A stretch of 64,000 bases of DNA. Origin: Escherichia coli. GTDB lineage: Bacteria > Pseudomonadota > Gammaproteobacteria > Enterobacterales > Enterobacteriaceae. The notes below the pieces were generated by a model. It was not told the DNA's origin, ran no database searches, and was given only the letters and a program-made list of their open reading frames with translations. The position numbers were made by a program, and so were the translations under genes. The stretch lies in NCBI RefSeq assembly GCF_030384885.1, contig NZ_CP128613.1; one strand, written 5' to 3'. Within the stretch, counting starts at the first letter, position 1, and every line of letters begins with the position of its first letter. This document shows, piece after piece, positions 29,636-33,697 of the stretch.

Positions 29636-31276
29636 TCACGCTGTTGCGAAACTAACAGACTCACCAGCTCCGCGTGGTTCTGCCAACACAGAATGTTTGT
29701 TCAGGCGGAAAACGTCTACCGCCTCAGTTAATCGTGCAGCCTGTTCTTCAAGGGATAGCGCCGCCGCAGAAGCCTCTTCTACCAGAGAAGCATTCTGTTG
29801 CGTCACCTTATCCATTTCGGAAATCGCCTGGCTCACCTGCGTTATGCCTCTACTTTGTTCATCCGAGGCGGCGGCAATCTCCTGCATGATATGTGTGACA
29901 CTCGCGACGGCATCAACAATCGTGCTCATGGTTTTCCCTGCCGTTGCCACTTCAACCGACCCCAGGTCAATTAACCTGACTGATTCACTGATCAAGCCTT
30001 CAATCTCTTTCGCCGCCTGGGCGCTGCGACTTGCGAGTGTCCGTACTTCGCTGGCGACAACGGCAAATCCACGTCCTTGCTCACCCGCTCGCGCGGCTTC
30101 AACGGCAGCATTCAGCGCCAGAATATTTGTCTGGAAAGCAATGCTGTTGATGACGGCAGTGATCTCGGAAATTTTCTTTGAACTCGTGGAGATTGCGCCC
30201 ATCGTTCTAACTACACCGGAAACCGTCTCCCCGCCATCGCTGGCTTTAATGGAGGCCTCTTGCGCCAGTTTGCTGGCATGATGCGCGTTATCCGCATTCT
30301 GTTTCACCGTCGCAGTGAGTTGCTCCATGCTAGCGGCAGTTTGTTCGATTGCCGCCGCTTGTTCTTCGGTGCGAGATGAAAGGTCCGCATTGCCAGCGGA
30401 AATTTCGCTGGTGCCACGATAAATCTCTTCCGTGCCCTGTCGAACGGTCCCTACTGTCATCCCCAGTGAATGCTGCATTTGCTGTAAATGACGACTTAAG
30501 CGACCGATTTCATTACGACCTGCCGGATCATCATTCATCGTCAGATCGCCACTGGCGATTTTTTCAATCCGTTGTGCGGCATGTTGCAATGGACGAATGA
30601 CGATCCGACGTAGCACCATAAATGTTATCAGCGTCATGACCACGGCAAGCACAAACGCGCCAATCATAAACATCACACCCAGGCGGGTACGCTGATGGGC
30701 CTGTTCCGCCAATTGGTTGGCTCTGGTGCTACGTATCTTAACGGCTTTGTTCAAAATATCGGTATAAGCATTATCCAGCGGTCGGATCTGCTCACTTTCA
30801 TGATTAATAATCGCTTCAAACATGCCATTTTTGGCATATTTCAACATAGGTTGCATACCCGTGATATAAGCCTGAAAGCGTTGATTTAATTCAGTGTCGA
30901 GGGCTTCATCAGCAGGTGTTTTCACCGGCCGACTCCGGTAAGCCCGATAACCTTGCTGCGACTGTTTAATCTCCGATTCGGCTTGCGCAATATTTCGCTT
31001 CATTGCTTCCATTTCCGCAATACGACTCGCCGCCCCGGCCTGAATCATATTGATCCGGGCCGAACGCAAAAAATCTGAGCTGTTCGCTAACCCGGTCCGA
31101 ATCTCAATCTCCGCAGTCACATCACGCTGATCGCGATCGGCCTGCCAGAGGAAATAGCCAGCCAGGGCTGAACTCAAGGCAAACAGAAGTAAGATACCGC
31201 CAAGAATGCAGGCAAATAACGGAACCAGCCTGATGTGATGCAAAAAACCTAATCGCTGTGAGGGAGTTGTATTCAT
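29636..31276 (-). CDS. trg: Methyl-accepting chemotaxis protein III (ribose/galactose sensor)
   Basis: 546-aa ORF with two TM segments, HAMP and the conserved MCP signalling domain with methylation-site heptads. Confidence 0.92.
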
Positions 31277-31315
31277 TACCGTTGTCTCTCTTCCAGGTTT
31301 ACTCCTGATAGAAAG

Positions 31316-31342
31316 TCATCGGCATTTGACGGTAATTACTTA
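31316..31342 (-). promoter_or_regulatory. Candidate sigma-28 (FliA) promoter for trg
   Basis: Minus strand reads TAAGTAAT-N11-GCCGATGA against the class III flagellar consensus TAAAGTTT-N11-GCCGATAA, about 40 nt upstream of the trg start. Confidence 0.4.
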
Positions 31343-31558
31343 CGACTAAAAACCTCTTTGCGTCACATTTTTACAACAATTATTGCAGAGAAGATTAATG
31401 CCATTGGATTGAAGAAAGTGAGGAATGGTTAAACTGGCTAACCCGAATGACGAAAAATTCTGGAAAACAGCACGCTATTTCGTGAAGTGATTATTTTCGT
31501 CCCTAAGGAAACCTCATAGGATGCCTGCGGGTGCCCTTACTGCCCCCCTTTTTACGCT

Positions 31559-31732
31559 TCAGTTAGTGCATATTTTTTTCGATGCACTAATAGAACCATC
31601 ATTACAGACAAATTTGCCGCCTGCTGTACAGTGAGAGATCCCCCCTTTCGAACCAGAGCAGGGTTTGCGCCCGGCATCGGCATAAAAGGAAACAAGCGCT
31701 CCCATAACCAAGATAAGTGCCAATTTTTTCAT
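31559..31732 (-). CDS. ydcA: 57-aa secreted cysteine-containing small protein YdcA
   Basis: Not in ORF track. ATG at 31732; [57 protein letters not shown] then TGA; signal peptide plus 4 Cys. Confidence 0.7.
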
Positions 31733-31902
31733 ATAACCTCCATGGTTTATCGAATCTTATGTTCGATTTGAACGTTATACGCTGGTTTATTTTGATACCG
31801 TTGATGAGATCAAAGATCGGGTGAATTGATTAAAGATAAGCCAGATGGACATATGGACAAGGATTATGGTTTTATTTGTCATACAAATAAATATAATAGG
31901 CG

Positions 31903-31967
31903 CTTCCGATGTAGGCCCGTACTTTTCGCCTGTACCGCGGGTCGGTTTTAGTACAGGCGTTTTCTTT
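31903..31967 (+). ncRNA. rydC: sRNA RydC (Hfq-dependent)
   Basis: cttccgatgtaggcccgtacttttcgcctgtaccgcgggtcggttttagtacaggcgttttcttt matches the remembered ~64-nt RydC, including the cgcctgtac/gtacaggcg terminator stem plus U-run. TATAAT at 31892-31897, about 6 nt upstream, with a TTTTAT-like -35. Confidence 0.65.
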
Positions 31968-31976
31968 AAAGATCCT

Positions 31977-32507
31977 TCAGGAACGTTTACGCGGCATCAT
32001 GCGTAGAAGTGTGTTGTCCTTCCAGAAATAGTGGTGTGCCAGTGCAGCCGCAGCGTGCAACCCGATGACAAAATATCCCAGATTCGCCAGCGTCTCATGC
32101 CACCACTTTAAGCTATCAACCCGTTCGAAATTGGCCTCTGCTGCATAAGGCATTGTCATACCAAACGCAAACCACGGGTTGCCCCGGTTATACATCATCA
32201 CCAAACCAATCACTGGCAGCGCAATAAACAGGAGATAAATCACCAAATGTCCCAAATGTGCCAGTCCCGTCATCATCGGTTTTGGTTTAGGTACAATCGG
32301 CGGAGTTGGGTATTTAAGCCTTAACAAAAGACGAACAACCATCAGCACGAGAATTGTGATGCCACAGGAAACATGAATCATGTTGATGAGCGGCCGATCG
32401 CTACGTGGGAAGAAACCACGAAACTCCATTGCGCAATACGCTGCGATAACCAGCAAAAAGACCAGCCAGTGAATGCCGATTTGTAACCTTGAATATTTAC
32501 TTTCCAT
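31977..32507 (-). CDS. cybB: Cytochrome b561
   Basis: ORF 31977-32543; start MESKYSRLQIGIHWLVFLL gives 176 aa; four TM helices with conserved His haem ligands. Confidence 0.9.
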   Translation of the reverse strand: MESKYSRLQIGIHWLVFLLVIAAYCAMEFRGFFPRSDRPLINMIHVSCGITILVLMVVRLLLRLKYPTPPIVPKPKPMMTGLAHLGHLVIYLLFIALPVIGLVMMYNRGNPWFAFGMTMPYAAEANFERVDSLKWWHETLANLGYFVIGLHAAAALAHHYFWKDNTLLRMMPRKRS

Positions 32508-32695: not shown

Positions 32696-33697
32696 ATGAG
32701 TAAAGTTGGTATTAACGGTTTTGGTCGTATCGGTCGACTGGTGTTGCGTCGATTACTTGAAGTCAAAAGCAACATAGACATTGTCGCTATTAATGATCTC
32801 ACTTCCCCAAAAATTCTCGCCTACCTGCTGAAACATGATTCAAACTACGGACCGTTCCCCTGGAGCGTTGATTTTACGGAAGATTCACTTATCGTTGATG
32901 GAAAAAGTATCGCGGTTTACGCCGAAAAAGAGGCTAAAAATATTCCATGGAAAGCGAAAGGCGCAGAAATCATTGTCGAATGTACTGGCTTTTATACCTC
33001 CGCCGAGAAATCGCAGGCGCACCTTGATGCTGGTGCGAAGAAGGTGTTGATTTCCGCCCCTGCCGGTGAAATGAAAACCATCGTTTATAACGTCAATGAC
33101 GACACACTGGATGGCAACGACACCATTGTTTCCGTGGCGTCATGCACCACTAACTGTCTTGCACCGATGGCCAAAGCCTTGCACGACAGTTTCGGAATAG
33201 AAGTCGGCACGATGACGACCATTCATGCCTATACTGGCACCCAGTCACTGGTGGATGGCCCGCGAGGTAAAGATCTACGCGCTTCACGTGCAGCGGCAGA
33301 AAATATCATTCCCCACACTACAGGCGCGGCAAAAGCCATTGGTCTGGTGATCCCAGAACTGAGCGGCAAACTGAAAGGTCATGCGCAACGCGTACCCGTG
33401 AAAACAGGTTCGGTGACTGAACTGGTGTCTATTCTTGGAAAAAAAGTGACTGCCGAAGAGGTGAACAACGCGCTTAAAAACGCGACAAACAATAACGAGT
33501 CATTTGGTTATACCGATGAAGAAATAGTCTCTTCTGATATCATTGGCAGCCATTTCGGGTCGGTGTTTGATGCCACGCAAACCGAAATTACCGCCGTGGG
33601 CGATTTACAACTGGTGAAAACGGTCGCCTGGTATGATAACGAATATGGCTTCGTCACGCAGCTTATTCGCACCCTCGAAAAATTCGCTAAACTCTGA
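32696..33697 (+). CDS. gapC: Glyceraldehyde-3-phosphate dehydrogenase GapC, intact 333-aa reading frame
   Basis: N-terminal NAD-binding motif INGFGRIGR and active site SCTTNCLAP; uninterrupted ORF. Confidence 0.9.

Follow-up and report, generated by a model that had tools for sequence, protein, structure and literature searches.

The closest described counterpart of the locus studied here is the interval cybB-rydC-ydcA-yncP-hokB/mokB/sokB-trg of Escherichia coli K-12 (b1418-b1421), and each of its components that concern us, namely RydC, YdcA, the FliA promoter of trg and the hokB module, is already known. RydC is an Hfq-dependent small RNA (sRNA) with a pseudoknot fold that activates the cfa mRNA. 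The trg gene of K-12 has a FliA (sigma-28) site, TAAGTAATTACCGTCAAGTGCCGATGAC, which was identified as a ChIP-seq motif, and expression of the gene falls from 108 to 4 in the absence of FliA (PMC4183435, Table 2). The published promoter of rydC is a sigma-70 promoter whose -10 box is perfect and which has no obvious -35, it is repressed by YieP, and a signal sequence has been predicted for YdcA (PMC11340327).

The window analysed here, a stretch of 64,000 nucleotides of E. coli DNA, shows the same order and orientation of trg, ydcA, rydC and cybB as K-12. Both have the same FliA promoter, rydC promoter and RydC seed, and their flanks are 95-96% identical. In contrast to K-12, the window has no yncP, hokB, mokB or sokB, a net difference of 337 bp; yncP is a small gene that overlaps the type I toxin-antitoxin cassette hokB/mokB/sokB, and both usually lie between ydcA and trg. 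We estimate at roughly 90% the probability that the interval is an ordinary E. coli trg-ydcA-rydC-cybB region, belonging to a cryptic clade I strain, from which the hokB cassette was secondarily deleted in a sub-lineage of clade I. The features of the locus, with the evidence used for each, are as follows.

29636-31276, minus strand: trg, methyl-accepting chemotaxis protein, intact, 546 aa (ORF list and RefSeq annotation of NZ_CP027579.1)
31277-31528, no strand assigned: trg–hokB intergenic DNA, retained and colinear with K-12 (alignment with K-12, strain 214-4 and clade I relatives)
31316-31342, minus strand: putative FliA (sigma-28) promoter of trg (motif and K-12 orthology)
31529-31553, plus strand: hokB deletion scar (alignment)
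31559-31732, minus strand: ydcA, 57 aa (ORF and NCBIfam NF007462)
31892-31897, plus strand: -10 box TATAAT of the rydC promoter (read from the sequence)
31903-31966, plus strand: RydC sRNA (Rfam RF00505)
31977-32507, minus strand: cybB, cytochrome b561, convergent with rydC (RefSeq annotation of NZ_CP027579.1; Pfam PF01292, 86.4 bits)
32696-33697, plus strand: gapC, intact (ORF list and annotation)

Over the trg–cybB region the window shows 100% identity with E. coli 2013C-4282 (NZ_CP027579.1), a strain listed as Escherichia cryptic clade I in a population study (PMC10100065). With K-12, strain 214-4 and Nissle, the 6.4 kb around the interval share only 95-96% identity, which is consistent with the placement of the window in clade I. 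Two other 3-kb segments of the window have counterparts with at least 99% identity in 15 and 3, respectively, of 5426 complete genomes.

An earlier note on this DNA had read three retained elements in the interval, a 57-aa Cys-containing YdcA, an RydC with its own promoter and terminator, and a plausible sigma-28 promoter of trg, and all three were borne out. RydC is called by the covariance model RF00505 with 80.1 bits against a gathering cut-off of 48 (model positions 1-64 of 64, E = 6e-14), and it is the sole Rfam match above the gathering score across the whole 64 kb. The K-12 RNA scores higher, with 92.5 bits. The first 12 nt, which form the seed, are the same in both RNAs, and the four substitutions that separate them lie at positions 13, 20, 22 and 35; two of these turn stem pairs of the model into G-U wobbles, and the other two are found in a loop. 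The 5' seed CUUCCGAUGUAG is invariant among the window, K-12, Nissle, the clade I relatives and two distant Escherichia genomes. The window RNA thus agrees with the RydC family in its full-length match, its 5' seed and its position convergent with cybB; rydC ends at 31966 and the stop codon of cybB lies at 31977, so that the two genes adjoin. The minimum free energy (MFE) fold of the RNA is not significantly more stable than that of shuffled sequences (z = -1.5), pseudoknots being outside the folding model.

Regarding the promoter of rydC, a perfect TATAAT -10 box ends 5 nt before the 5' end of the RNA, and no -35 can be recognised. The roughly 27 nt that precede the RNA start are almost unchanged, even in the outgroups with 83-85% identity. 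A sigma-70 consensus scan of positions 31200-32050 called no promoter, that of rydC included. The perfect -10 box, conservation and the literature (PMC11340327), and not the consensus scan, are therefore the basis of the assignment. At the 3' end, the terminator is made of an 8-bp stem between GCCTGTAC (31928-31935) and GTACAGGC (31951-31958), followed by GTTTTCTTT; it was missed by the terminator scan because its 15-nt loop exceeds the limit of the scan.

YdcA matches the NCBIfam equivalog NF007462 over residues 1-57 of 57, with 142.8 bits against a cut-off of 118, and differs from the K-12 protein at three residues; Pfam has no family for it. The protein has a signal-peptide-like N-terminus, composed of a KK motif, a hydrophobic core and YADA followed by G, and four cysteines in the remaining 37 residues. 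Export to the periplasm via this N-terminal signal peptide is predicted. Among the matches listed, small Cys proteins similar to YdcA (51-68% identical) appear in Yersinia, Pluralibacter, Acinetobacter, Hydrogenophaga, Variovorax, Microvirga and Aquabacter, a patchy and wide distribution, and no Hok was found near the loci of these listed genera. Within the last codons of ydcA (31563-31590), TTAGTGCAT...ATGCACTAA form an inverted repeat of 9 bp without mismatches, the loop being T-rich. This repeat is located directly downstream of the former 3' end of hokB and is kept in all aligned E. coli sequences.

The candidate promoter of trg, TAAGTAATTACCGTCAAATGCCGATGA, matches the consensus TAAA-N15-GCCGATAA with two mismatches, and the motif ends 39 nt upstream of the trg ATG. 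Taken on its own this match is weak, since 15 matches of the same type were observed in the window where 6.2 are expected. The comparison with K-12 is more informative: 26 of the 27 bases are those of the K-12 FliA site, the single difference being in the spacer, and the form TAAG-N15-GCCGATGA is kept, with a diverged spacer, in the two Escherichia genomes that are 83-85% identical to K-12. As judged from sequence, the site in the window is the orthologue of the FliA-bound, FliA-dependent site of K-12, and FliA-dependent transcription of trg in the window strain is putative.

The gap between trg and ydcA covers positions 31277-31558, exactly the 282 bp given in the earlier note, which had stated that K-12 carries hokB/mokB/sokB near trg and had proposed that such a module is absent here. 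Annotation and control searches place the module in K-12, and the profile, tblastn and cmscan searches of the window, negative here and positive in K-12, agree with its absence. Among the ORFs of at least 20 aa in the gap there is no match to Pfam HOK_GEF (PF01848), for which the K-12 HokB control scored 83 bits. Searching the window by tblastn with HokB, MokB, YncP, R1 Hok and HokC returned chance-level matches only (best E of about 0.3-0.4), whereas with the K-12 locus as target the identical queries reached E values between 1e-9 and 1e-35. The K-12 hokB segment found nothing in the window by blastn. The Rfam sok model (RF01794) had no match up to E = 10 in positions 31000-32200, compared with 109.7 bits in the K-12 control. 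In the alignment to the K-12 cybB-trg interval, the window is colinear up to GGGTGCC (31529-31535) and again from about 31542, and the net gap between these points covers yncP, hokB, mokB and sokB of K-12. The locus is not a member of the Hok/sok type I family, as it has no toxin ORF, mok, sok or leader RNA and keeps only both ends of a former hokB unit together with the sequence upstream. From these results we infer that the window strain has no HokB, MokB, SokB or YncP at this locus.

A 60-bp query specific for the hokB-less junction was found in 4 of the 5426 complete E. coli genomes.

2013C-4282: human, USA; hokB-less junction
MFDS1022581: animal-source food, Korea; hokB-less junction
MFDS1019527: cattle, Korea; hokB-less junction
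N96: Tibetan pig; hokB-less junction

In the filler of the junction, the CT of the window corresponds to TG in the last three genomes. Over 5698 flanking positions, 56-57 differences separate these genomes from the window but only 1-4 separate them from one another; the hokB-carrying clade I strain R32_14_1F has 68 differences from the window. The occurrence of the allele in four independent genomes, with two diverged junction variants, indicates that it is real and not very young. Because the missing unit is highly structured, one could imagine that it had been collapsed during sequencing or assembly; the chance of such an artefact is negligible, as the four complete genomes come from different laboratories, hosts and countries and share the architecture, while their sequences vary at the junction and near it. 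In metagenome contigs, neither an exact nor a relaxed pattern of the hokB-less junction gave a hit. To judge from these four isolates, the cassette appears to be dispensable in the wild, even though at least part of it is kept in the 5411 of 5426 complete genomes in which the hokB unit was detected (4531 of them at a coverage of at least 80%).

The polarity of the difference can be established by comparing haplotypes, and at the level of sequence the absence of hokB is shown to be a derived secondary deletion with a scar, and not an empty ancestral site. The scar keeps the start of the hokB unit, GGGTGCC(TG), and a degenerate GGCACCCC-TTTT end, both of which argue for a deletion. The closest haplotypes, those of the clade I strains R32_14_1F, EC42405 and RMDEC465 (97.9-98.5% identical), all carry hokB, which points in the same direction. 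Furthermore, hokB also occupies this position between ydcA and trg in two Escherichia genomes much further removed than clade I, one of which has it in two tandem copies; both are labelled E. coli but represent separate GTDB species, with 83-85% identity to K-12 at this locus. These two genomes constitute the outgroup sample, among at least 11 loci listed by a species-wide YdcA scan, and the representative of E. coli itself is absent among the matches listed by that scan. Escherichia albertii and E. fergusonii have different genes beside rydC (PMC11340327) and are thus uninformative on polarity.

If the lineage had instead never possessed hokB, the cassette would have entered the remaining E. 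coli lineages by insertion. Horizontal spread and local duplication are known for the hok family (bioRxiv 10.1101/2025.08.07.668861), and the hokB-less allele, being composed of two diverged variants, is not very recent, which would suit such a history. However, an uninserted site would hold neither the first 7-9 nt of the hokB unit nor a 3' remnant, and the junction holds both; the presence of hokB at the same site in the distant genomes and in the nearest clade I haplotypes is equally difficult to reconcile with late insertion. An ancestral empty site is therefore largely refuted, and we give it a very small probability. The genome of 'E. coli' E69 (CP089930.1, positions 4181-5039), a representative of a separate GTDB species, contains two tandem hokB units between ydcA and trg, each with its upstream region. 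Both 49-aa Hok ORFs are intact and 88-90% identical to K-12 HokB, and the repeat starts at the AAAAGGGGTGCC end that adjoins ydcA.

Having a derived deletion as the preferred reading, we analysed the junction at the level of single bases. The scar opens with the 7 nt that begin the hokB unit, GGGTGCC; CTTACT follows as a 6-nt filler, and then come GCCCCCC and TTTTT. The G that begins the scar and the hokB unit is homologous to the position at which the Rfam sok model starts in K-12, and GCCCCCC is a degenerate form of the 3' arm, GGCACCC. In the other allele variant, 9 nt of the unit start are kept, GGGTGCC(TG), and the filler has between 4 and 6 bases across variants. In the 3' remnant, GGCACCCC-T4 stands against TGCCCCCC-T5 of the hokB-carrying sequences, and there is a nearby A to G change. 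Because of these filler bases and the several substitutions in the 3' remnant, a single clean deletion does not explain the junction. A simple microhomology model, with a TG common to both breakpoints, failed to yield the junction that is seen. When a source of the junction bases (TACTGCCCCCC and its variants) was sought across all the loci retrieved and the window, they were found only at the junction itself.

In a clade I relative, the 362-nt hokB unit is closed by a 12-bp helix in which the initial 12 nt, GGGUGCCUGAGA, pair with the 3' end, UCUCAUGGCACCC, and the unit folds with an MFE of -139.9 kcal/mol (z = -4.2 against shuffled sequences). Six sequences, drawn from four lineages, preserve the closing helix, one pair having changed in a compensatory way from U-A to C-G, and the helix presumably corresponds to the 5'-3' fold-back pairing described for hok mRNAs. 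The breakpoints of the deletion are located inside both arms of this helix, so that the interior was removed and the outer part of each arm was left. With the 3' arm mutated, no hok-type mRNA with paired 5' and 3' ends was found at the locus. What remains of this long-range pairing in the hokB mRNA is 7-9 nt on the 5' side, then a small number of filler bases, and a 3' arm that has mutated but still has its T-run. The position of the breakpoints suggests that the helix, or the corresponding inverted repeat, may have brought them together in a structure-guided deletion. A more specific mechanism, in which the cassette was excised at the base of its own 5'-3' helix by template switching across the stem in single-stranded DNA, is speculative and in our opinion unlikely. 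If it were true, the inverted repeats that allow hok mRNAs to fold would also make whole hok cassettes prone to deletion. This would provide a structure-guided route of loss for chromosomal type I toxin-antitoxin loci, in which both parts leave together and the cell is not killed. The breakpoints in the closing helix of the hokB mRNA thus offer a small, testable idea on how these cassettes get lost. That the helix is not a required site of deletion follows from strain GPEC349-628, in which hokB was deleted between other breakpoints.

Immediately upstream of the scar lies what is presumably the orphaned promoter of hokB. This raises the question of whether the scar is itself a selected functional element, a hairpin and T-run that would end transcripts from the orphan promoter before they run antisense into ydcA, with adaptive substitutions. 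The consensus scan flags positions 31529-31545 plus CCCTTTTTAC as terminator-like on the plus strand, and the junction has accumulated more changes than its flanks. However, the hairpin is weak, with five pairs and an MFE no better than that of shuffled sequences (z = +0.9), a result on which the scar was rejected as a terminator, and the substitutions lower the complementarity of the two arms instead of raising it. We consider a selected element highly improbable, and we retain the reading of the scar as the remains of a deletion.

An ORF of 21 aa at 31425-31490 on the plus strand, MVKLANPNDEKFWKTARYFVK, was also evaluated and was not called a gene, because all of its differences are amino-acid changes and its Shine-Dalgarno sequence abuts the ATG. 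K-12 and 214-4 both have the ORF uninterrupted, and in E69 its C-terminal part can be recognised. Conservation at these positions probably reflects regulatory DNA rather than protein.

Other lesions affect the trg–hokB interval in E. coli. In the type represented by Nissle and ATCC 11775, found in 308 of the 5426 complete genomes, the 5' parts of both trg and hokB are deleted. The Nissle deletion (2390-2945; junction query 2809-2868) fuses a trg without its N-terminus to a hokB without its N-terminus, and the strains with it include ExPEC. The C7 type is a shorter version, with trg truncated and hokB intact, and Ecol_AZ147 has an IS150 between trg and hokB. The deletion in GPEC349-628 (NZ_CM160080.1, 1500-1545) is independent, beginning at position 35 of the hokB unit and reaching into ydcA at the 3' end of that gene; in this genome phage tail-fibre genes occupy the place where trg would be expected, and the deletion adjoins prophage genes. 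Among these lesions, only the allele of the window removes the cassette with both neighbours intact.

Regarding consequences, chromosomal hokB is reported not to mediate post-segregational killing, in work cited by a study of the hok family (bioRxiv 10.1101/2025.08.07.668861). As the toxin and the antitoxin were lost together, the deletion should be tolerated. Within clade I, the hokB-less allele is a rare but ordinary natural deletion of minor interest. Chromosomal hok loci are expected to be gained and lost, and all the parts of the locus have been described, which limits the significance of the allele. Its practical value is that the four isolates are natural clean knockouts of hokB, sokB and yncP at this locus, with the neighbouring genes intact, and they could serve as controls in studies of HokB-dependent persistence.

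Beyond cybB, the gapC gene, which encodes a type I glyceraldehyde-3-phosphate dehydrogenase of 333 aa, is intact in the window and in the other non-K-12 strains examined, whereas in K-12 it is annotated as a pseudogene.
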